Positions 1 through 47,455 of a stretch of 64,000 nt of DNA are shown here, piece by piece. The position numbers and the translations under genes were made by a program. Source of the stretch: a virus (lineage: Duplodnaviria > Caudoviricetes). The notes beneath the pieces are model-generated. The model was not told the origin of the DNA. It worked only from the letters and a program-made list of their open reading frames with translations, and ran no database searches. Numbering within the stretch: the stretch's first letter is position 1; each line of letters begins with the position of its first letter. The DNA is taken from IMG/VR virus record IMGVR_UViG_3300031998_000003, positions 32,001 through 96,000 of that record. One strand, 5' to 3'.

Positions 1-1479
1 TGAAATGGAACTGTTTTGATACCAATATCCATTGTCAGATCTATACCATGTCTCATTGTTATATGTGAATGCTACTGGATTGCTAGTATAGCCTCTAGTA
101 TTATATTTAACTGCTTCCGGATTTTTTGAGAATAATACAGGACCATTCCAGTTATTGTTGTAATGTGATGCAACAAACGCATATTTTGGTAGAGCAGCAC
201 GTTCACTCGTCAAAGTAAAACTTCTACCAATATAGCCTAAATCTGTTTCATCAATAGAGTAATACTCACTTGAAGTATCGTAATCTGAATCAATTGATTC
301 AGTTCGAATGTTGATACCGTTACCAGCAGTATAACCAGCACCGCCTGTTGCGCTCAGCACACCGTTTTGATCAATCGAAAGATTATCACCTATTTTCACA
401 CCACCAAGCGTATTGGATGATGCTGTTGGCAGCGTATAGTTTTCCAGCCCAGCTAGTTTGGTTTGTTCCTCTGTCGTATAAGATGCAGTCGTGTTATCTA
501 ACACACTTTTGTTTGTGTGAGTATGTGAACTTTCTTCCAGGGTCGTTACACGTCCTGACAATGCGGTATCATCATAATTCTCTAAACCGGCAAGTTTGGT
601 CTTTTCTACGGATGTATATGAAGCCGTCGTTGCATCTAATATAGCTTTATTGGCATGCGTATGAGCAACATTTTCCAAGTTTGAAATGCGGCGTTTGACT
701 TCAGTATCATCATACGGCGGTACAATAATACCACTTGTATCGACTGACACTCTTCCGTTAGAATCAATTAATAGACCTTCACCGATAATGATGCCACCAA
801 GCGAATGTCTTGTTGCAATGGGTAACACATATTTGTTTGCATTTGGTTCAATACCAGATAATTTTACAGCAAGTTCCGTTGTGAATGGAGCTGTGATCGA
901 ATCAATAATTGATTTATTCAGGTGAATGTGTTTTGCTTGTTCCAGCAGCGTGACACGTTTTGCTAACTCATTCGCAGTTTTCTGAACAGCAGCAAGTTCT
1001 TCCTTTGTCGCAAATTTCGATACGTCAATATCAATTGCAGATGACAACGGATCCCAACGATTATTGAACCAAACATATTCAATATATGCTTTTCCATCCG
1101 GAGTCACCTTCGCCATTTTAACAAAGCGGATATCACCATCTTTGTTACCAGTCTTTGGTAATGCTGATGCGGATGGGAGAATCGGACCTAATACACGAAC
1201 ATACGGTTGTTTGTCCATATAAGCAATTACGGTTGCTTCAGACGTATCTTCGACAAGTTTCTTTACTTCTTCTTTTGTAAAGTATTTCGAAATATCGATG
1301 TTTGCACCGATGTAAGGAAGTTGTGAATAATACTTATTACCTTCACCAATTTTGATTCGAGTATTTCCATCTGGAGTTAATTCAACGCACAGAACACCAC
1401 GTGGAACAACGTAACTTTGAACAGCACGTTCTTTCCATTGGTCTGTTCGTTTTACAATATGAATATTCGAATCATCCAT
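1..1479 (-). CDS. Tail fibre/receptor-binding protein, runs off the window start (partial)
   Basis: Not in the ORF track. ATG at 1479 follows RBS GAAAGGAG and the frame is open at both ends I translated. N-terminus MDDSNIHIVKRTDQW...RIKIGEG resembles the Mtd_N/hyaluronidase-N domain. Also has HxH repeats (HIHLNK, HTHANK, HTHKTK) and LGGIIIGEGL/LGGVKIGDNL fibre repeats. Confidence 0.75.
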   Translation of the reverse strand, partial: MDDSNIHIVKRTDQWKERAVQSYVVPRGVLCVELTPDGNTRIKIGEGNKYYSQLPYIGANIDISKYFTKEEVKKLVEDTSEATVIAYMDKQPYVRVLGPILPSASALPKTGNKDGDIRFVKMAKVTPDGKAYIEYVWFNNRWDPLSSAIDIDVSKFATKEELAAVQKTANELAKRVTLLEQAKHIHLNKSIIDSITAPFTTELAVKLSGIEPNANKYVLPIATRHSLGGIIIGEGLLIDSNGRVSVDTSGIIVPPYDDTEVKRRISNLENVAHTHANKAILDATTASYTSVEKTKLAGLENYDDTALSGRVTTLEESSHTHTNKSVLDNTTASYTTEEQTKLAGLENYTLPTASSNTLGGVKIGDNLSIDQNGVLSATGGAGYTAGNGINIRTESIDSDYDTSSEYYSIDETDLGYIGRSFTLTSERAALPKYAFVASHYNNNWNGPVLFSKNPEAVKYNTRGYTSNPVAFTYNNETWYRSDNGYWYQNSSIS

Positions 1480-1502
1480 GTCAATCTCTCCTTTCATAGG
1501 AT

Positions 1503-1516
1503 TTAATGAAGCGTTT
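1503..1516 (-). promoter_or_regulatory. Putative late promoter AAAC-N7-TAA
   Basis: AAACGCTTCATTAA upstream of the tail fibre gene; same pattern at 6156, 16438 and 60868. Confidence 0.5.
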
Positions 1517-1524
1517 TCAGTAAA

Positions 1525-1548
1525 TGGGCGGGGCATTTGCCCCACCCA
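1525..1548 (-). terminator. GC hairpin after the endolysin
   Basis: tgggcggggc-attt-gccccaccca. Confidence 0.5.
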
Positions 1549-1557
1549 CTACTATTA

Positions 1558-2460
1558 TCATTTCATCAACGCTTCACGAGTTTCGAGATTACATGTTGCT
1601 GTCAGTTTCAGTTTCTGATCCCATTGGAATCCGAGGACTGCAGACATCGTCTTCTTCCCGAAGTCACCGTCATCTTCACCCTTCGTGAGATATCCCTTTG
1701 CGATCAGCTGTTGCTGGAGCCACTTCACATCATCACCGTTGTCACCACGTTTCAGCTCTTTGACATCCTCAGTCAAGAGCACCCAACCAACACCGGACTT
1801 CAGCTTACCGTATTTCAGTGAACCGATTGTGGTTTCTTGTACGATCGTGTAGATACTCTCGACAGAAATCATGCTGACCTGTTCGACCTTGTTGTCATCG
1901 ATACGGAAGATTTTGGTACCGAACGGAAGCCGCTTCGTATATGGCTTGAAAGGTTCGGGTTCTGGACCATTCGGTTGTAAAACAAATCCGAGGAACATGT
2001 AACCTGAACCTGCTCCCCAGTTTCCGTCACTGCCCTTCTTTCTGTTTGTCGTCCAGAATGCATTTGGACAATCGTATCCAGACTCGGATGTCACAATGGA
2101 TCCGTCAGCATTAATCTGTTCGACGATGGCGACATGTCCTGCGCCATCTTTGTAGCTGAGTGTGGGGCCTGCTTGCCATACAATGATGGCACCAAGCTGT
2201 GGATTCTGTGAAGTTTTCAATCCGTGCTGAATGCCGTTTGCATACATATTCTCTGCGTTGATTGGATCAATCAGTGAGAATTTTGTATCACCAGCAATCT
2301 CATGGAAACGTCCACAAGCATATCCAACACAATTGTGAAGTACATTGCAATCCGGATCTGTTGGACTACCCAAGATCGCAGTACTGTATCCACCGCTGTC
2401 TTTGCGGATATAGTACTTGTTACCCTTTTCAGGTCTCGTGAGTCTCGGTTTAAATGCCAT
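1558..2460 (-). CDS. Endolysin: CHAP amidase + SH3-like + PG-binding domain
   Basis: NCVGYACGR and GHVAIVEQ...SESG CHAP motifs; YTIVQE...GKLKSGVGWV SH3-like segment; LKRGDNGDDVKWLQQQL...DGDFG PG_binding_1. Start moved to the ATG after AGAAAGGA. Confidence 0.9.
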   Translation of the reverse strand: MAFKPRLTRPEKGNKYYIRKDSGGYSTAILGSPTDPDCNVLHNCVGYACGRFHEIAGDTKFSLIDPINAENMYANGIQHGLKTSQNPQLGAIIVWQAGPTLSYKDGAGHVAIVEQINADGSIVTSESGYDCPNAFWTTNRKKGSDGNWGAGSGYMFLGFVLQPNGPEPEPFKPYTKRLPFGTKIFRIDDNKVEQVSMISVESIYTIVQETTIGSLKYGKLKSGVGWVLLTEDVKELKRGDNGDDVKWLQQQLIAKGYLTKGEDDGDFGKKTMSAVLGFQWDQKLKLTATCNLETREALMK

Positions 2461-2488
2461 GGTAACCATCCTTTCTATTTGAATATAA

Positions 2489-3169
2489 TCAATCAGTTGC
2501 TGTGCTGATCGCAAGATATCCATCCGTGATGTATTCAACACCATCGAGTGTGAATGTTCCGAAGTTCAATGCATATGCTGTATCACGAATGATCATGAAC
2601 GCTTTTGGTGTAACACTCTTGGTACCAAGATTTGCATTTGTAGCAAACGCCTGTAAAACGGTTTGTGTACCAACTTCGGATGTGACCGGTGTAGTTGTAT
2701 TAAATGATGGATTATCCCCATACGCTATGTGACGAAACGGTTTGGTGAAACTGGCACTACCCTGCGCGAAATCTACTCCGATGTATGCCGGCACGCCATT
2801 GTTTGTTTTGGTTATCATGAAATGCATCTGATAAGCATATCCGTTAGAGGTTGTAGCAGTTCCTTGGACAATAATACCATTTTCGCAACCGATATAATTT
2901 GTCACATTCTGTTCGCTGGAATGTATAAGCAGATTAACTTCGGCTAAAGTCACATAATCATTCGGACTTCGGTAGACCCTGTAATAGCCTGGAGTTGACG
3001 AACCGTCTGGTCTGTCGGAAAATTCCATCATGATATGCCTATCGGCATCCAAGCACATGATTTGATTATTCGGACCCAGTTCAACCGATGCAAAAATACT
3101 TGGAACCAATGTATCTAATAACTGTTTGAACTGGTTTGCGTTTTTCAGTACTCCTCGAACAATTGCCAT
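2489..3169 (-). CDS. Hypothetical virion protein
   Basis: ORF in the structural operon, beta-rich composition. Confidence 0.6.
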   Translation of the reverse strand: MAIVRGVLKNANQFKQLLDTLVPSIFASVELGPNNQIMCLDADRHIMMEFSDRPDGSSTPGYYRVYRSPNDYVTLAEVNLLIHSSEQNVTNYIGCENGIIVQGTATTSNGYAYQMHFMITKTNNGVPAYIGVDFAQGSASFTKPFRHIAYGDNPSFNTTTPVTSEVGTQTVLQAFATNANLGTKSVTPKAFMIIRDTAYALNFGTFTLDGVEYITDGYLAISTATD

Positions 3170-3174
3170 TATTA

Positions 3175-3549
3175 TCACTCACTTTCTGTATTCGTACGAT
3201 GACCTGCGAGAGTAACTTCGGCAGAGCCATATTTTGATTTTGGAGCATATCCGGCGGTGTAACCATCACCGGTACCACCGCCTCCACCTCCTCCTCCGCC
3301 ACCGCCACCACTGTGTGGATCTTCATCCGGAAAGTATTCATAAATGTTTTCACCATTTACGATCTTTCCTGTGTTAGAGTCGGTGATCAGATACTGAGGA
3401 AAATTGATGAGAAATGATATCTGTTCGTAGGTCGCAACGTATCCTTTCACAGGATTCGGTTGGTTGATGATTGCAATATTGATCGCACGCATTGAAGGAA
3501 CCGAAATATCAGTTACATCAATCTTCAAAGTTTCATCAGCCATTATCAA
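3175..3549 (-). CDS. Hypothetical protein with poly-Gly tract
   Basis: ORF coupled to its neighbours; run of 12 glycines. Confidence 0.65.
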   Translation of the reverse strand: MIMADETLKIDVTDISVPSMRAINIAIINQPNPVKGYVATYEQISFLINFPQYLITDSNTGKIVNGENIYEYFPDEDPHSGGGGGGGGGGGGTGDGYTAGYAPKSKYGSAEVTLAGHRTNTESE

Positions 3550-4799
3550 TCACCAACTTCCGCATCAACTGGTTGGATGAATGTAAGCGGAATCAGTTTG
3601 CCGAGTGCAATATCAGCATTGAATGCCTGTTCAACAGTGACAGACTCGTCATCCGTTGTGGTATATGCTTCAGTGGTCTGATATACAGTACCAGGTTCGA
3701 GCCATGTGATAACTCCCTTATGGAAGTAATGGCTCTTCACATATTCCTCGGAAGTGTAGTAGATGTTCTCAACACGGTGAGCTAGTGCCTCGATGGTAGC
3801 ATCCTGTTCCTCGATACGTGCGGTCAATGCAGTAATCGTTTCGGACATCGAAGTGATTGCATTCCGCATTGTCTCGATTACATCTTCCATCGGCTCATAC
3901 AGCGCGGACCATACGTCATATACATTACCAGCAATGATCATGTTGGAAGTGTATACATTGAACGAAATCTTGAGACGTGTTGTGATATTTGCCTGGAAGG
4001 TTGTAGACCAGTTCAGATTTGAAGCAGCCACCAAGACGACTTCATCTTCCTGTGTTGCATTAATTGTGTCAACTTGCTGACTGATCTTGGTGTCGTTCTG
4101 TGTGAATGCATAGAACGGATTCAGTCCTTCCGTAATATGATTCTTTGTGATGATCTTTCTACCGTATACTTCGATACGATCCAGACGCAGGATATACATA
4201 CCAGCATAATCCATCGCCGGAATATTCGTCACCATCATATTTGAGATGGACTCGACGAAATAATCCATGACGTCTGTGTAGTGGAACTTACCGATCGTAT
4301 TGCTGGACTGAACGGAGTTGGTATATACAACACCACCCTGTTCGTCCAGAACTGTGAACAAGATCTTCACTTGGAAGCCACTCTTCAGAATGGAAAGAAC
4401 ATGATCATTGGTCTCAAACTGAGAACCGATTTTATTGCAGAGGAATGAATACAACGAGTCATTTGTGATGATGTTGCCTTCAGTCAGATCGAATGTACCA
4501 ATGAGATTGATACAAGACATATCACTGCGTCTTGTTACCTGAGTGCGGACATTCTCAGAGACGCTGATCTTTGTACCGTACTCAAACAGATCACGCTGAA
4601 TCAGAAGCGGATCGTTGTTTACGATCGTGAACAGACTGCCGTTGATCATTCCCGCAGTCGGAATCTTCGAGTTGTCCGGATTCGGTTGATACATCTGATG
4701 GCAGCAATCACATGCATAGTTTCCATTCATCATAAATGGATAGGTACGCGGAACCGGAACGCGTCCACCGCATCCGCAGCCAATTGTCATTTCGTTCAT
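3546..4799 (-). CDS. Putative virion structural protein with coiled coil
   Basis: 417-aa ORF with heptad segment MRNAITSMSETITALTARIEEQDATIEAL. Confidence 0.65.
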   Translation of the reverse strand: MNEMTIGCGCGGRVPVPRTYPFMMNGNYACDCCHQMYQPNPDNSKIPTAGMINGSLFTIVNNDPLLIQRDLFEYGTKISVSENVRTQVTRRSDMSCINLIGTFDLTEGNIITNDSLYSFLCNKIGSQFETNDHVLSILKSGFQVKILFTVLDEQGGVVYTNSVQSSNTIGKFHYTDVMDYFVESISNMMVTNIPAMDYAGMYILRLDRIEVYGRKIITKNHITEGLNPFYAFTQNDTKISQQVDTINATQEDEVVLVAASNLNWSTTFQANITTRLKISFNVYTSNMIIAGNVYDVWSALYEPMEDVIETMRNAITSMSETITALTARIEEQDATIEALAHRVENIYYTSEEYVKSHYFHKGVITWLEPGTVYQTTEAYTTTDDESVTVEQAFNADIALGKLIPLTFIQPVDAEVGD

Positions 4800-4811
4800 G
4801 GGATACCCTCC

Positions 4812-6104
4812 TTATTTGATTTTGAGTGTTTGTTTGATAATATAGATGATAATCGGTGTCCACAAGAAGACTTCCTTCGACATCGAGTTATCAAATAATT
4901 GATCGCCGGTGTACAATGACAAATCATGAATCGAACGGATCTTTCCATGAATGAAATCGTGAATCATTGACACGTAGTCATACCGTCTGAGTTTGAAATG
5001 TCTGATACATGTGTCGCGGAATTTGCAACACTGACAGTCACATGTTTGACAATGTCTGGTGTCATTTTCAGCTTCCAGAATTTGATAGACTTCTTCTGGA
5101 AAATAGAACTCACAATCCGGTGCTTGACACCAAGTATCACCAGGCATCATAACCGAAACATCGTCTCCATAGTTATAGAAAGATGAATTCGGGAATGCCA
5201 ATGATGTCATGAGTTTATACTTAAATCGATCAAGATAACGAATCGGTGCATCTCGTTCGATCCATTTATAAACCGATCTCTGATAATAGTAATCAGCCGT
5301 ATTGGAGTTCATTTTGTTCTCATTCAACACGATATTTCCATGAGCATTGTCACGGATCATGATGCCGTGTTTTGCCATGAATGTGTTCCCACACATATCA
5401 AACAGAGTCATGCCGTTCAGATGCAGGACGAAACAGTTATGTGTATGATCGTAATAGTTGGAAATGTAGTTTTCAACCATATCATCAACCATACGAATCA
5501 AACGACTCCGAAGCTCGTAATCTTCTTTACCGATAACAGGTGTCAGATCTTCTGCACCAACAGTCTGTAGATCACATTTATAATGACCAACAACCTGACG
5601 ACGGAGTTGTTCGATTTCACTCGGTTGTGTTGTGAACAACGAATATGAGATTCGATAAGAACCATCTGTGTTCAGACCATCTTGTGTGACTTCCGTAACA
5701 CGAATCAGATGTGTCATCTTCAGATGATTCACGATGAAGAAATCGTTTTCTTTTGGCATTACCGTTCCAGGAATGATGAATGCATCTCCAGAAAGATTGT
5801 AATTGCGGACTGTTGTTGACGGAGTTGTTCCATTCTCCGGATTCAACGGTGACATTCCGAGAAGTGGGAAGTCTTCAATCTCGTTCCATCTGATAGGAGA
5901 ATCGATTCCGAGAATCTGATATGCGTCGTTCAGTCCCAGAGAATCTGTTGTATTCTGATCATCGATTGAGAAGTATGTAACAATTGTTCGCCCAGCTCCA
6001 GTATACTTATTGATTCTGGAATGAAGCCATTTATCATATTTATACATCTGACCGTTGACCAATGAATTTTCGTCATAAATCAATTGCGGCATTTTTCTCA
6101 CCAC
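4812..6104 (-). CDS. Putative virion structural protein
   Basis: 430-aa first gene of the operon, downstream of a late-type promoter; Cys cluster CQTCDCQCCKFRDTC. Confidence 0.65.
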   Translation of the reverse strand: MVRKMPQLIYDENSLVNGQMYKYDKWLHSRINKYTGAGRTIVTYFSIDDQNTTDSLGLNDAYQILGIDSPIRWNEIEDFPLLGMSPLNPENGTTPSTTVRNYNLSGDAFIIPGTVMPKENDFFIVNHLKMTHLIRVTEVTQDGLNTDGSYRISYSLFTTQPSEIEQLRRQVVGHYKCDLQTVGAEDLTPVIGKEDYELRSRLIRMVDDMVENYISNYYDHTHNCFVLHLNGMTLFDMCGNTFMAKHGIMIRDNAHGNIVLNENKMNSNTADYYYQRSVYKWIERDAPIRYLDRFKYKLMTSLAFPNSSFYNYGDDVSVMMPGDTWCQAPDCEFYFPEEVYQILEAENDTRHCQTCDCQCCKFRDTCIRHFKLRRYDYVSMIHDFIHGKIRSIHDLSLYTGDQLFDNSMSKEVFLWTPIIIYIIKQTLKIK

Positions 6105-16437: not shown

Positions 16438-16451
16438 TTACAGAACCGTTT
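16438..16451 (-). promoter_or_regulatory. Putative late promoter
   Basis: AAACGGTTCTGTAA. Confidence 0.5.
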
Positions 16452-24032: not shown

Positions 24033-24048
24033 GTGTTACCACCTCCTT

Positions 24049-24065
24049 TCACGAAAATAATATAT
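24049..24065 (-). promoter_or_regulatory. Putative early promoter
   Basis: ATATATTATT-TTC-GTGA. Confidence 0.55.
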
Positions 24066-24116: not shown

Positions 24117-24962
24117 TTATTTGAAGTAATCGAAGAATCCTTCCTGGATTGGACGCGGTTGCTGCCACTTATCGATACGAGTCGCAGTGGGATCCATCTT
24201 GAACAGATAATCCATTTCGGTCAGACAGAACTCGACGATTGCAAGCTCCATGCTCTGCTCCTGTGTGATCGGAATCTTTTGTACGGCAGCTTCTGTCATG
24301 ATCGTCTGATGAATGTTCATTATGACGGATTCAGACTGGACATCCTCACCTGCAACATCACCGCCCTCAGCATTTGCATCCTGAGTTTCAGTGCTCTTTG
24401 CAGTGAGTTTCTCATCCAGATCATCGAATACCGGAGCATCGTTTGACTGGGTGATCTCCTTAGCGACATCATCAACAACCTTACGAGAAACGATGTCACG
24501 AAGCTTCTTACGAAGTGTTTCGTAATTATCGATTTCCGGGAGTTCTTTCTTCATGTTTGCAATGTCGTTTGTGAATGCATCATCCTGAACTTCAGAGACC
24601 TTGGTCGTAACCTTTTCAGTCTTGTCATCGATCTCCTGGATGATGTTATTCAGCAATGGAGACTTCAGTTTGTCACAGGACTTACAGAGATAATCATAGC
24701 ATCCACAGCCGTATTCGTCACGAATGTGCTGCATAATGGAATGATCGATCATTCCATCAAGATCCTTTGTTTCATCATGCATCATAGCCGAGATCAAGTC
24801 TCTCAGAACATACATAGAAAGCTTCTCACGAAACTTTCCAGCATCGAATGTCTGCGGCTGTTTGACACCCATGTTCTGATGCATGGTAGAATTGACGGTA
24901 TTCGGGAATTTGTTATTCGCACCGTCAATGATATTATCGAGCATGCTCTTAATATCGGGCAT
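24117..24962 (-). CDS. Putative internal head protein
   Basis: 281 aa, acidic; ends PIQEGFFDYFK, the same motif as in the neighbouring gene. Confidence 0.6.
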   Translation of the reverse strand: MPDIKSMLDNIIDGANNKFPNTVNSTMHQNMGVKQPQTFDAGKFREKLSMYVLRDLISAMMHDETKDLDGMIDHSIMQHIRDEYGCGCYDYLCKSCDKLKSPLLNNIIQEIDDKTEKVTTKVSEVQDDAFTNDIANMKKELPEIDNYETLRKKLRDIVSRKVVDDVAKEITQSNDAPVFDDLDEKLTAKSTETQDANAEGGDVAGEDVQSESVIMNIHQTIMTEAAVQKIPITQEQSMELAIVEFCLTEMDYLFKMDPTATRIDKWQQPRPIQEGFFDYFK

Positions 24963-24977
24963 TATGATTCACTCCTT

Positions 24978-27638
24978 TCAATTTGATTTGAATTTCGACA
25001 CTAGGTCTTTTGCAAAGTCTGCAATTGTTTGAGCAGCTCTCATAATTGCAATACCCTTTTTCTTATGAATCAGATCCGGAGCACCATTCACAACTGGAGT
25101 TGCTTCAACATTTGTGCCTTGTGCAGAAACCTTAATGGCAAGCTCAGGTTTTTCTTTTGATTTCATCGTGAATGTTGGAATCATTGATCCACCAATGAAA
25201 TCAAATGCATCAGACAACATATTTCTCAACTGGTTTTGAACATTGAGAAGTGCTGCCGATGTTGCCGCCTCTTGTACAAGTGCTGACTCTTGAACGGAAT
25301 CATCGCTGGATAGCTTCTTTTTGAAGTCATCAAAAGTTTTTGCAATAAAGATGAGACGTTTGCCCTCAGGATTATCATGAATATTTATGAACATGCGCTC
25401 ATCGGACTTGGATGAATTACCCATGAGGATTTCATTACCAAAGCCATCATTTGCGAGTGCAATGAACTTACCACCATTGCCATCATAATCAAACGGATTT
25501 TCGATACTTCTCTCAATCTGTTTGGGTCCATAGAATTCGAAAGAACCGTGACGACTGTTTTTGTCATGTTTGACAGTAAAAGTCCCGGACTCTTCGTTGA
25601 CGAATTTCTTATAACTATCAGGGAGTTTCCGTCCGAGTTTATTTTCAACTGTGGTGAAGTCCAGACTCCTCGGTGCCGCAGCTTCTTGAACAGGTTTACC
25701 AGGATGATTCTTTTCAACCAGTTTCGCAACACCGGTTGCTTGTTGGACAAATGCTCGGATGAGACGCTTCGTTGCGTCAACACCGCTCTTATCCTGATCT
25801 GTACGCATGACCGCCATCAGATCAGATAGAAGCGCATTCAATTTCAGGAGCTGTTTGGTCTCTTCCTCATTGAAGACATCTTTCATTTTGGAAGCCTTGT
25901 GAACAACACGGTTCAGCTGTTTACCTTCCTTGCGGAATTCAGCACACAGCATTTCGATTTCCATGTCGCTGTCATTTAGGATTCCGAGCGTTTTTCTGAG
26001 GTGAATATCAAGCTCCTTACCGATATTACCTCGCGTCAGAAAAAAAGCTTCCTGAACTCCTTCGTCACCAGCTGGAAGTTCCGGAGCATTACCGTCAGGA
26101 GAATTCATGAAATCCTTTAGCTGCTGAACAGTCATCTTCTTCAGCTTTTCCTGACCTTGGGCAAGAAGCTCTTCGATTGTCATATTGTCGACATCAACAT
26201 CGGATGTTGCAGCTGCTTCATCACCGGCTGTATCCTCGCTGTTTGCATCAGCATCACCGATATCAGCATTGACATCATCTTCAGTTGGCATGTCGGTAGA
26301 ATCGATTGCGGAATCAGCGTCATTAGAACCATCATCGATACCATCGACATTCAGGCCCTCGTCTTCAGCCGCAGCATTCTTGGTTTCGTCAGAAACCTTT
26401 TCAGCAATCTCATCGGAAACGTTGTTTGGATCAGCAATTTCTTTCGGAGCAGCGTCACCTTCAGCAGGTGGTGCAGCATTCTCAGCTTCAGGAGCAGCTG
26501 CATTCGCATCAGGTTGTGTATTTTCATCACCGAATGAAACACTGCCGCCAGCAGATTCTGGAGTAGGCGCGGCATTCGGATCACCGAAGTCAATGGCTTC
26601 CTGAATATAATCGAATCTGTTACGTGAGAAACGATTTCTGACAACCGGCTCAGCTTGTGCAGCTTCCATCGCCATCTGTTCTTTGATGATCTGACGAGCT
26701 TTCTTTGGGGTGATTGCCTTTAGGCTTTCGATCTTACCAGGATTGATCTGCTTAAACTGATTATCGGAAGCATTGGTGAGTTTTCCATCACCCTTCTTTC
26801 CCTTCTTGATAACCATCTCCCAGCTCAAGAACTTCTTATCATCAACACCGTCAATCTCGAATTCGATCGCGATACAATAGCGATCAATCGGATCAACAGG
26901 AACGATGAGGGCTGTTGGAGTGACCTTGTCCCAGATCTCCTCAACGGACTTGCAGCCGCACATACCACCCCACGCATCAAATGCAACTTCCTGGCATGCG
27001 ATTGTACGAGACTGATCGGACATGAAGATCTGGATTGCTTCAAGCTGCTTATGAGTGATACGGTTCTTCCTATCGACCTGATATGCAACTGAGAGTTTCA
27101 CATAATGGTGATCATTGCCCTTGTAGCTTCCGAAATCCATTGTAACAGAAGACGGTACACGTTTATCATCGATCGGAATCTTGTCGAAGCCGAAGAGTCC
27201 TTCCTGAATCAGATAATCACGATACTTCTGATACTCGGCTTCAGCATATGTCTTACACCGTGACTCAAAGACGCCTTGAGTTTCACGCCCGAACGGCACA
27301 AGCGTATCACATGCTTCCTGATAGAAGTCGTCAAACGTCTTCATCAGGCCGAGATCTACGGATTCCTGAACAGTCGCATCCATTGGAACATCAACAACAC
27401 GACCGTCCAACAGGTTCAACTCGACGGATGTGATTTCCGGATTGTCTTCAAGCGGAATATCAACATTCGCGAATTGACGTGGACCGTTTGTTGCAGTTCC
27501 TTCAAGCGACAAGTCGTCAAACTCTTGGAAGAGATGTGCGCAATCCAGAATAGCTTGGTCCATCAGCTGCTCCTGAACTGCTTCTTGCTGTGGTGCAGGG
27601 TTCATTTCTTGCAGCTGTTGCTTAATGTAATCAAGCAT
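24978..27638 (-). CDS. Putative internal head polyprotein with SMI1/KNR4 (SUKH) domain
   Basis: Repeated [VI]QE-[AGS] motifs and a long acidic linker; VENKLGRKLPDSYKKFV...FIALANDGFGN is an SMI1/KNR4 signature. Confidence 0.7.
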   Translation of the reverse strand: MLDYIKQQLQEMNPAPQQEAVQEQLMDQAILDCAHLFQEFDDLSLEGTATNGPRQFANVDIPLEDNPEITSVELNLLDGRVVDVPMDATVQESVDLGLMKTFDDFYQEACDTLVPFGRETQGVFESRCKTYAEAEYQKYRDYLIQEGLFGFDKIPIDDKRVPSSVTMDFGSYKGNDHHYVKLSVAYQVDRKNRITHKQLEAIQIFMSDQSRTIACQEVAFDAWGGMCGCKSVEEIWDKVTPTALIVPVDPIDRYCIAIEFEIDGVDDKKFLSWEMVIKKGKKGDGKLTNASDNQFKQINPGKIESLKAITPKKARQIIKEQMAMEAAQAEPVVRNRFSRNRFDYIQEAIDFGDPNAAPTPESAGGSVSFGDENTQPDANAAAPEAENAAPPAEGDAAPKEIADPNNVSDEIAEKVSDETKNAAAEDEGLNVDGIDDGSNDADSAIDSTDMPTEDDVNADIGDADANSEDTAGDEAAATSDVDVDNMTIEELLAQGQEKLKKMTVQQLKDFMNSPDGNAPELPAGDEGVQEAFFLTRGNIGKELDIHLRKTLGILNDSDMEIEMLCAEFRKEGKQLNRVVHKASKMKDVFNEEETKQLLKLNALLSDLMAVMRTDQDKSGVDATKRLIRAFVQQATGVAKLVEKNHPGKPVQEAAAPRSLDFTTVENKLGRKLPDSYKKFVNEESGTFTVKHDKNSRHGSFEFYGPKQIERSIENPFDYDGNGGKFIALANDGFGNEILMGNSSKSDERMFINIHDNPEGKRLIFIAKTFDDFKKKLSSDDSVQESALVQEAATSAALLNVQNQLRNMLSDAFDFIGGSMIPTFTMKSKEKPELAIKVSAQGTNVEATPVVNGAPDLIHKKKGIAIMRAAQTIADFAKDLVSKFKSN

Positions 27639-27715
27639 TTACTATCGCTCCTTTTCATTAAAATTTTTATGAATGAAAACATACATTGTTTTCAAGAACG
27701 GCGAGGATATACGAT

Positions 27716-27862
27716 TTATAAGATGACACCGAATACTTCCAGAAAGATCTCTGAAACCATGTCTGGAGTTAACTCTGTAATACCGATGTCTTCCAATTCC
27801 ATTCCCTCTTCCAAGGTTACACCATTGATCGAGGGTTTGTTTTCGAGATCTTCGTAATTCAC
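27716..27862 (-). CDS. Small phage protein
   Basis: GTG after GAGGTG; NYEDLENKPSINGVTL motif, which I recognise from Firmicute phage tail-associated proteins. Confidence 0.55.
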   Translation of the reverse strand: MNYEDLENKPSINGVTLEEGMELEDIGITELTPDMVSEIFLEVFGVIL

Positions 27863-27892
27863 ACTTATCACCTCTTGAAAGGAGCAAATTTC

Positions 27893-46883: not shown

Positions 46884-47154
46884 TCTTCAACACACGGATA
46901 TACTTCCGTGTGTTCGATAGCTTGATGTCGAATGCCCATACAGACATGTCAGGACACGGTACCGTTGACATGAGTTCACACGGATACCACACACCTGTCG
47001 TCAATCCATAGTTCTGCATGATAGCAACATATTTGTCTTCATATGGATTGTGATCAGGTGTCGGAATCTCGTGATATGTATCTCTATCACATATCATGAA
47101 TCGCACATTGTGTGTATCATGTTTTGCAGATATCAAATCCATAAAATTTAACAT
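46798..47154 (-). CDS. Hypothetical protein
   Basis: RBS AAGGAG. Confidence 0.6.
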   Translation of the reverse strand: MLNFMDLISAKHDTHNVRFMICDRDTYHEIPTPDHNPYEDKYVAIMQNYGLTTGVWYPCELMSTVPCPDMSVWAFDIKLSNTRKYIRVLKSEIDNGYVKLDFDEGDKSGQNYTCNQTE

Positions 47155-47455
47155 CTCCTTTTGGTGATATACCGATTCTGGCTTCGGTTGTTACATCGGG
47201 ATGTTGAGCAATATCAACATGTGCCTGTGTAGGATGGTCAATTTCACCTAACCATTTTCCTTCTTTGATCAATCGATCATGACGCTTTTCGAAGTCAGCA
47301 ATGGCATCTGATATAAATTCCGGAGAATATATGCGCCCATTCCGGTTCTTATATCTGATAACTTTCTTGCGAATGAATCTTTTGTATTCGTAGCCATGGA
47401 TGAGTCCATGTCTTTTCGCAAGTCTATTAAGTTTCTTACGTTTCCGCCAATTCAT
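47117..47455 (-). CDS. MNWRKRKK-family basic protein
   Basis: N-terminus shared with 50098 and 50480. Confidence 0.7.
   Translation of the reverse strand: MNWRKRKKLNRLAKRHGLIHGYEYKRFIRKKVIRYKNRNGRIYSPEFISDAIADFEKRHDRLIKEGKWLGEIDHPTQAHVDIAQHPDVTTEARIGISPKGDVKFYGFDICKT

Follow-up and report, generated by a model that had tools for sequence, protein, structure and literature searches.

The 64,000-nucleotide stretch of DNA analysed here, called the window, comprises bases 32001-96000 of the IMG/VR virus record IMGVR_UViG_3300031998_000003 (248,669 bp, rated 92% complete; the whole record is called G000 where its own coordinates are given). On the minus strand, between window positions 24978 and 27638, it encodes an acidic protein of 886 amino acids (aa), of which roughly the first 650 form a carrier (leader, α/β domain, acidic disordered region, and four-helix bundle) that is followed by exchangeable cassettes. 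The gene is a member of a fast-evolving family whose synteny is fixed. The cassette boundaries are, in the predicted structures, short low-confidence linkers carrying a hydrophobic-Gln-Glu motif followed by Ala, Gly, or Ser. We favour, with moderate confidence, an explanation in which the carrier protein would be built into the prohead, the Peptidase_S80 prohead protease of this clade (of the phiKZ gp175 / SPN3US gp245 type) would cleave it after the Glu residues of the joints, and two small proteins, the SUKH module and the module at the C-terminus, would thereby be freed and leave the capsid together with the DNA.

Architecture of the protein and its joints

The reading frame that the original prediction had described is real and its product contains 157 Asp and Glu versus 100 Lys and Arg residues. 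Its N-terminus, MLDYIK, is common to the homologues. A structural model was obtained with AlphaFold2 using 110 family sequences (confidence is given as pLDDT, the predicted local distance difference test). The parts of the gene and protein are as follows, in window coordinates, with an arrow at each proposed cut.

24978-27638, minus strand: carrier open reading frame (ORF), a single unbroken frame of 886 aa plus stop, with the ATG at 27638-27636
27648-27654, minus strand: Shine-Dalgarno sequence AAAGGAG, 9 nucleotides ahead of the carrier ATG, within the leader TTTAATGAAAAGGAG
27363-27638, minus strand: residues 1-92, conserved N-terminal leader with helices at 2-40 and predicted disorder at 41-92, ending in DATVQE↓S
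26598-27362, minus strand: residues 93-347, helical hairpin and α/β domain (pLDDT about 83-90) without a recognisable fold match
26049-26597, minus strand: residues 348-530, acidic and mostly disordered, with an invariant short helix (N405, V407, S408) and helices at 488-511, ending in VQE↓AFF
25683-26048, minus strand: residues 531-652, four-helix bundle (539-644, pLDDT 85-92) that completes the conserved carrier, ending in KPVQE↓A (E652)
25287-25682, minus strand: residues 653-784, putative SUKH cargo cassette bounded by E652 and E784, with SMI1_KNR4 at residues 661-772 (25323-25658)
25269-25286, minus strand: residues 785-790, six-residue spacer separating the tandem sites SVQE↓S and LVQE↓A
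24981-25268, minus strand: residues 791-886, second cassette, M5, of 96 aa, with a small α+β module modelled at 802-886

Residues 1-92 are a candidate propeptide or targeting region. The carrier has QE at 11, 19, and 23 in this part, and Glu23 is kept in 99 of 121 family members. In the full model the confident α/β domain spans residues 100-330 (pLDDT about 90), and modelling residues 93-347 by themselves resulted in a pLDDT of 83. This part contains QE108 and QE146 and closes in a disordered stretch with the near-invariant sequence [FY][YFI]QE↓AIDFG. Acidic disorder, including one invariant short helix, is predicted for residues 333-485, and disorder again for 513-531; residues 646-656 form a linker, and residues 781-801 are modelled with low confidence. 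The model of residues 93-347 did not match anything in BFVD at E<=0.001, and its best match among 48,161 PDB representatives (VIA wide, Z 6.3) covers the helical hairpin only. The full model found nothing in the PDB with Foldseek at E<=0.001, and a search of the ESM Atlas gave no usable match. For residues 531-649 there were fold matches (VIA wide, Z up to 11.9), which we rejected as generic four-helix bundles, since a meaningful match between bundles requires a higher score.

All copies of the repeated motif that had been listed originally were located in the protein, namely TVQES (89-93), LIQEG (143-147), YIQEA (344-348), GVQEA (527-531), PVQEA (649-653), SVQES (781-785), LVQEA (787-791), QQEA (17-20), and YQEA (106-109), and AVQEQ is present at 20-24. 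The dipeptide QE occurs 14 times while 3.6 copies are expected from the composition, and a single one of 200,000 shuffles got to 14. The eight copies of [VI]QE compare with 0.42 in shuffles, and the eight copies of hydrophobic-QE-[ASG] with an expected 0.19; neither count was reached in any of the 200,000 shuffles. Of the permuted tripeptides, [VI]EQ and EQ[VI] are absent and Q[VI]E is found once. In the whole of G000, with about 79,000 aa, there are only 42 copies of [VI]QE, of which the carrier has eight. The observation that several copies fall at domain boundaries holds, but not every copy does. The sites at 92, 347, 530, 652, and 784/790 are in linkers with pLDDT <50 between folded units, whereas about half of the copies (39, 108, 146, 217, and 497) are located within helices or folded parts. 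Because of these five, the motif alone marks neither a cut nor a boundary.

An SMI1/KNR4 domain had been placed exactly between PVQE↓A (E652) and SVQE↓S (E784), and the Pfam matches bear this out. Residues 661-772 align to positions 7-122 of the 125 positions of SMI1_KNR4 (PF09346; E 4.3e-10, 40.7 bits versus a cut-off of 25.4), and SUKH_6 (PF14568) matches with E 2.1e-7 and 31.9 bits versus a cut-off of 27. By these profiles the cassette belongs to the SUKH superfamily. AlphaFold2 predicts mixed helices and strands for residues 661-777 (pLDDT about 56-77), and fold searches with the whole model are dominated by the helical bundle.

Exchange of cassettes between related phages

A word-indexed search retrieved 141 relatives of the carrier on contigs of up to 280 kb, and conservation was counted over 121 family sequences. 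The family belongs to uncultured jumbo phages of 230-295 kb that are distant kin of AR9/PBS1. Residues 1-652 are common to the relatives and the C-terminal part differs among them. The Gln and Glu at 92, 108, 146, 347, 530, and 652 are kept in 83 to 120 of the 121 sequences, E530 being the one that is kept in 120, and around 652 the flanks of the linker change while V-Q-E-[A/G/S] stays. Among the 687 distinct QE contexts of the family, P3 is V, Y, I, F, or L in 83%, and P1' is A, G, or S in 66%, compared to 27% after any Glu. In distant relatives the P1 Glu is retained while P2 changes (VVE, AME, VTE, IEE, VNE), which fits an enzyme directed by Glu in x-x-E (the rule for S80/S77).

Comparing orthologues between the conserved sites had been proposed as a check in the original prediction, and differing domains do fill these slots. 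Splitting the tails at the QE sites resulted in 22 freely recombining cassette types. The tail orders seen include core-M8-M3-M1, core-M8, core-M11-M7-M3, core-M11-M3, core-M7-M6, core-M4-M6, core-M3-M4, core-M5, and the core alone; homologue P0025 has no cassette and terminates exactly at ...PVQE. M1 and M3 are SUKH variants, M6 is DUF1963, and DUF6985 is often found behind M1. Up to three or four immunity-type domains are present on one chain (SUKH and DUF6985; SUKH_5-like, SUKH-1, and DUF6985; other relatives have DUF1963), while the G000 copy has one SUKH and M5. Putative cargo is also found past the E530 site (P0021, P0045, P0051) and past the E347 region (SUKH at 308-421 of P0081). A comparison of profiles of the cassette types revealed just a weak link between M1 and M3 (69% probability over 24 columns).

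The identities between family members are mosaic. P0002 is 97-100% identical to the G000 copy throughout except for the SUKH segment (76%), P0003 is 44% identical at residues 147-347 versus 94-97% in both cassettes, and in P0019-P0021 an M5 of 78-82% identity sits directly on a carrier of just 35-67% identity. Such mosaicism, together with the swaps at the joints, would also be expected if the joint motif were mainly a recombination landmark for swapping cassettes and not a protease site, as in polymorphic toxins, where VENN or PxxxxDPxGL form the borders. We regard this as highly improbable. The joints have only about 9-11 nucleotides in common (approximately GTT CAR GAR GSN) with synonymous variation in the Gln and Glu codons, which is too short and too variable for recombination homology and points to conservation and selection at the level of the peptide. 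In addition, sites that do not swap, such as 92 and 347, have kept the motif, as have the protease and portal of the relatives described below. Breakpoints determined automatically by BLAST gave a noisy picture, with 34% of the starts within 20 aa of a joint versus 16% at random.

A head-maturation protease in the related genomes

The protease was sought in 18 related IMG/VR loci that had been retrieved with a profile of the carrier. One of these genomes encodes an S77-like ORF of 287 aa, and homologues with 49-61% identity are present in five more. All six of these proteins (280-295 aa) score above the Pfam cut-off for Peptidase_S80 (best E 1.5e-8) and match phrog_3014, 'head maturation protease' (best E 3.6e-13). 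A search of PDB sequences with a profile of this family gave no significant match. Peptidase_S80 is the family of phiKZ gp175 and SPN3US gp245.

The proteases contain the joint motif themselves. AC[FY][VI]QE↓[AS]P is found around residue 19 in 118 of 120 homologues, and xQE↓[GS] at about 200-215 of about 280 residues, thus about 70 aa before the end, in 77 of 120; QE in these proteins is nearly confined to the two places. SPN3US gp245 cleaves after A-X-E and sheds its own C-terminal propeptide of 64 residues (PMC10052503), to which the C-terminal site of the relatives' protease is a parallel, and phiKZ gp175 and T4 gp21 are likewise processed C-terminally (PMC9026906). The portal protein (G000 168012-170396) has a comparable site. 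Its homology to the AR9/PBS1 portal starts at residue 369, and [IV][IV]QE is present at residues 239-255 within a variable linker in all six genomes; the SPN3US portal sheds a propeptide of 254 residues (PMC10052503). A second QE site at about 342-348 of the portal was seen in three of the six genomes.

As would be expected for an S80 substrate, x-x-Glu in the carrier is thus found in linkers that are predicted to be accessible, and the same motif marks the protease's own sites. The motif at the joints of the carrier is probably one that the head-maturation protease of the relatives cleaves, and the predicted cleavage code is hydrophobic-Q-E followed by A, G, or S. Judged from comparing the sequences, the reading as a cleaved polyprotein is well supported. 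From the original proposal of a head polyprotein, the modular build and the conserved motif-bearing linkers stand and are joined by the S80 protease of the relatives, but the carrier matches no head-protein family and the protease gene is not on the contig.

Position of the gene and evidence against a head protein

These and several other results weigh against the reading as a packaged and cleaved protein. The neighbours of the carrier gene are DNA polymerase and RNA polymerase genes, and the gene is thus surrounded by genes for replication and transcription and outside the head module. There is no match of the carrier to head-protein families of Pfam, PHROGs, or the PDB, including inner-body families of the phiKZ type. 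Because the carrier does not have a homologue in a cultured phage, no virion proteome can be transferred to it. Neither a paralogue of the carrier nor another protein with its N-terminal leader was found in G000, so that a shared tag of the T4 type is missing. A Peptidase_S80 or full S77 gene was not found on the G000 contig with PF03420, PF20034, or BLAST and hidden Markov model searches using the protease of the relatives, and the major capsid protein of G000 was not identified in three PHROG batches. The QE sites within helices or folded parts count here as well. For the cargo, a close cellular relative of the SUKH cassette is absent from 1.84 billion representatives, a search of shorter proteins was likewise almost empty, and Pfam and PHROGs did not reveal a recognisable toxin partner in the carrier or adjacent genes.

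Some of this would be accounted for if the protein were an uncleaved multidomain protein that is not part of the virion, for example a factor in host takeover or associated with replication, in which the QE stretches serve as conserved linkers, cap helices, or act in docking, and SUKH binds proteins while tethered to the chain. The polymerase neighbourhood, the conservation of QE at 39, 108, 146, 217, and 497 in spite of their location in structured parts, and the lack of both head-protein homology and a protease gene on the contig are in line with this. It does not, however, agree with the same motif at the ends of the S80 protease and at the expected propeptide border of the portal, with cassettes that are swapped exactly at the motif and a homologue that stops on it, or with a P1 Glu that stays when P2 changes. 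In addition, the early-promoter motif of the AR9 type (TATATATTAT...), which is present about 20 times in G000, is missing from the 236 nucleotides upstream of the carrier gene, which is weak evidence against early expression. We therefore consider an uncleaved protein to be unlikely. A late-promoter class was looked for as well, and none could be assigned to the carrier gene.

The missing protease gene is most likely explained by the missing 8% of the genome. Both ends of the G000 contig cut through ORFs. In three close relatives the S80 gene is located just upstream of the homologue of the gene at G000 5243-5740 (165 aa), a place that is taken in G000 by a gene for a C2H2 zinc-finger / endonuclease-like protein of 271 aa (4431-5246). 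Two other candidates for the protease were not adopted. An ORF of 112 aa (window 47117-47455, minus strand) begins with a basic leader and contains an N-terminal His motif (NRNGRIY...GEIDHP) that resembles the one of T4 gp21, but it covers positions 56-102 of S77 only, with 17 bits for PF03420, and does not have the Ser half. A protein of 593 aa (G000 178820-180601) matches phrog_3894 weakly (E 1.7e-4) and has no PDB or phage match.

Other searches with the carrier were similarly empty. Neither the gene nor the protein matched any of 50,697 phage records (megablast, tblastn), the carrier profile did not match the whole AR9 genome, no PHROGs family was assigned, and SUKH families were the only Pfam matches at E<=1.

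Possible functions of the cassettes

Among the immunity domains of polymorphic toxin systems, those of the SUKH type are the most frequent; they build polyimmunity proteins and have been acquired by eukaryotic DNA viruses (PMC3482391), and DUF1963 is the protein-binding domain TYPP (PMC4275035). With the SUKH segment, the 1.84 billion representatives yielded only six proteins at E<=1e-3, the top-scoring of which are members of the phage family. Because there are almost no matches outside the family, the cassette appears from these searches to be of old descent and adapted to phages, and not to have been captured recently. In the literature searched, we did not find any paper that ties SUKH to phage capsids or anti-defence, or that describes a jointed carrier.

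From the habits of the SUKH family and the precedent of T4 IPI* (PMC9026906), the SUKH module might act in the infected cell by blocking a toxin-type effector of the host, for instance a nuclease or deaminase belonging to a defence or interbacterial-toxin system, much as IPI* blocks a restriction enzyme. By this analogy such a role is conceivable, although rather doubtful. Extended to the whole family, the carrier could be a loading rack for hypervariable strings of immunity-type domains (SUKH variants, DUF6985, DUF1963/TYPP, and unknown cassettes) that the protease of the head clips off and that are injected along with the genome, and would thus provide a strain-specific, premade antitoxin kit, a phage-delivered polyimmunity. 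Its targets would be abortive-infection or defence effectors of the host, or interbacterial toxins that are lethal to the infected cell. We put forward this combination of rack and targets tentatively.

The protein could also be cut in the prohead while its pieces serve the particle. In this case the carrier would be a scaffold, an inner-body protein, or a charge-balancing protein, and the SUKH module would either provide self-immunity by silencing a co-packaged toxin-like effector of the phage or be discarded like a propeptide. Most S80 cleavages in SPN3US and phiKZ indeed remove propeptides that exit the head (PMC10052503), SUKH classically shields the producer from its own toxin (PMC3482391), the carrier contains a long acidic disordered segment, and other large G000 proteins (1146 aa and 1287 aa) combine hydrophobic-QE with enzyme-like modules. 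However, the cassettes of close relatives range from none to three to four SUKH plus DUF6985 or DUF1963, and such strong variation is more readily explained by an arms race against external targets that vary than by a single constant partner inside the phage. The existence of cassette-free forms also means that the cargo is not required for assembly. Service to the particle is thus quite unlikely.

If the ejection of the modules with the DNA is true, the carrier is a natural modular system to load foreign proteins into a giant capsid and to release them at defined joints. The cassettes would also amount to a catalogue, and their host targets could show which toxin-type defence effectors count in rumen and gut bacteria.

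Neighbouring genes and promoter-like motifs

The genes of G000 include those for split RNA polymerases of the multisubunit type and for a divergent DNA polymerase of family B. The cultured phages most closely related to it, with proteins that are about 30% identical, are PBS1/AR9, phages of the Staphylococcus S6 type, and phiR1-37. The carrier gene opens a conserved rightward block (carrier, 281-aa gene, 194-aa gene, 1390-aa RNA polymerase beta-like gene, and 2653-aa gene) that runs divergently from the gene for the DNA polymerase; within this block, the carrier gene is the least conserved. The leader TTTAATGAAAAGGAG has only two copies in G000 at up to two mismatches, which are near-identical and have equal distance from the ATG (window 27639-27662 and G000 4186-4208). 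The second copy precedes the gene for the 1287-aa protein (G000 322-4185), which also bears hydrophobic-QE sites. An 81-aa ORF with a TTG start (window 27642-27887, minus strand) lies directly upstream of the carrier, overlaps the start of the DNA polymerase, does not have a ribosome-binding site, and on these sequence features is probably not a gene.

The C-terminal end of the 281-aa downstream neighbour (window 24117-24962, minus strand) reads ...RPIQE↓GFFDYFK, in which the joint motif is succeeded by GFFDxFK, the stub with which many cassettes of the carrier homologues start. Such a tail is present on this neighbour in only three of 16 related loci.

A conserved motif, (T)CTATATATTATTAATGTGAATA, closely resembles the annotated early promoter of AR9 (L022 2080-2092) and has about 20 copies in G000, those in the window being listed here together with the copies of a second motif, AACG[GT]TTCTGTAA.

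About 16479, plus strand: (T)CTATATATTATTAATGTGAATA
About 24040-24064, minus strand: (T)CTATATATTATTAATGTGAATA
About 55418, minus strand: (T)CTATATATTATTAATGTGAATA
16438-16449, minus strand: AACG[GT]TTCTGTAA
G000 190431, minus strand: AACG[GT]TTCTGTAA
G000 102993, minus strand: AACG[GT]TTCTGTAA

One copy of (T)CTATATATTATTAATGTGAATA falls between the 281-aa gene and the 194-aa gene, so that an early promoter of their own may serve the genes downstream of the carrier. The motif AACG[GT]TTCTGTAA is located about 25 nucleotides upstream of the ribosome-binding site and start of the 2653-aa and 501-aa genes, and is also found upstream of an internal start in the 1146-aa polyvalent gene; it may represent a second promoter class. 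Most genes of G000 are preceded by strong AAGGAGG Shine-Dalgarno sites and the GC content is 42%, which suggests a Firmicute-type host, while one homologue of the carrier was binned in a Paludibacteraceae metagenome-assembled genome and points otherwise.

Comparison with known systems

A close parallel to the proposed logic is given by the internal proteins of T4 (IPI*, IPII, IPIII, and Alt), which have capsid-targeting sequences and are cut by the prohead protease gp21, and of which IPI* inhibits a type IV restriction enzyme (PMC9026906). Loading into the prohead core, release of the mature part by a Glu-directed protease, and ejection with the DNA would be shared, as would cargo that is non-essential, poorly conserved, and engaged in an arms race with the host. 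There is, however, no sequence similarity, and packaging and cutting of the carrier are only proposed. In addition, the T4 proteins are small single-domain proteins with an N-terminal tag of 10-19 aa, whereas the carrier has about 650 aa, several internal joints, and strings of C-terminal cassettes with SUKH-type cargo.

With the S80-processed head and ejection proteins of phiKZ, 201phi2-1, and SPN3US the carrier shares a Peptidase_S80 encoded by relatives of its phage and the proposed multiple x-x-E cuts with a small P1'. In these relatives, the sites within the protease itself and within the portal are placed similarly to those of SPN3US gp245 and gp81. The published motifs are A-X-E and S/A/G-X-E (PMC10052503, PMC9026906), in contrast to the hydrophobic P3 and mostly Gln at P2 of the carrier. 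The known substrates lose N-terminal propeptides, whereas the internal joints of the carrier would free several modules, and by Pfam and PHROGs the carrier is not in the phiKZ inner-body families.

The polyvalent proteins of phages and conjugative elements (Iyer et al. 2017, PMC5512222) similarly combine many conflict modules on one chain, which presumably enter the host along with the DNA and may be separated by proteolysis. SUKH or immunity domains are not mentioned in that survey (PMC5512222), and the carrier differs in having no protease in cis, the head protease being proposed to act in trans. In polyimmunity proteins (Zhang et al. 2012, PMC3482391) several SUKH or other immunity domains per chain vary between close strains, and the relatives of the carrier have two to four such domains. 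Polyimmunity proteins are cellular and shield bacteria from toxins, whereas the carrier is a phage fusion with protease-type joints and, in G000, a single SUKH. The Dar proteins of phage P1 are anti-restriction proteins that are packaged in the capsid and injected to protect the incoming DNA. Head packaging and injection are proposed for the carrier as well, but the proteins are unrelated and Dar does not have a cassette architecture. Thus, the theme of processed head proteins is already known from T4 IPI* and phiKZ, and the jointed cassette carrier would be a new form of it. If the proposed function is true, it would join the immunity proteins of polymorphic toxins with the capsid-packaged counter-defence of T4 IPI* and P1 Dar, two fields that have so far been studied apart.

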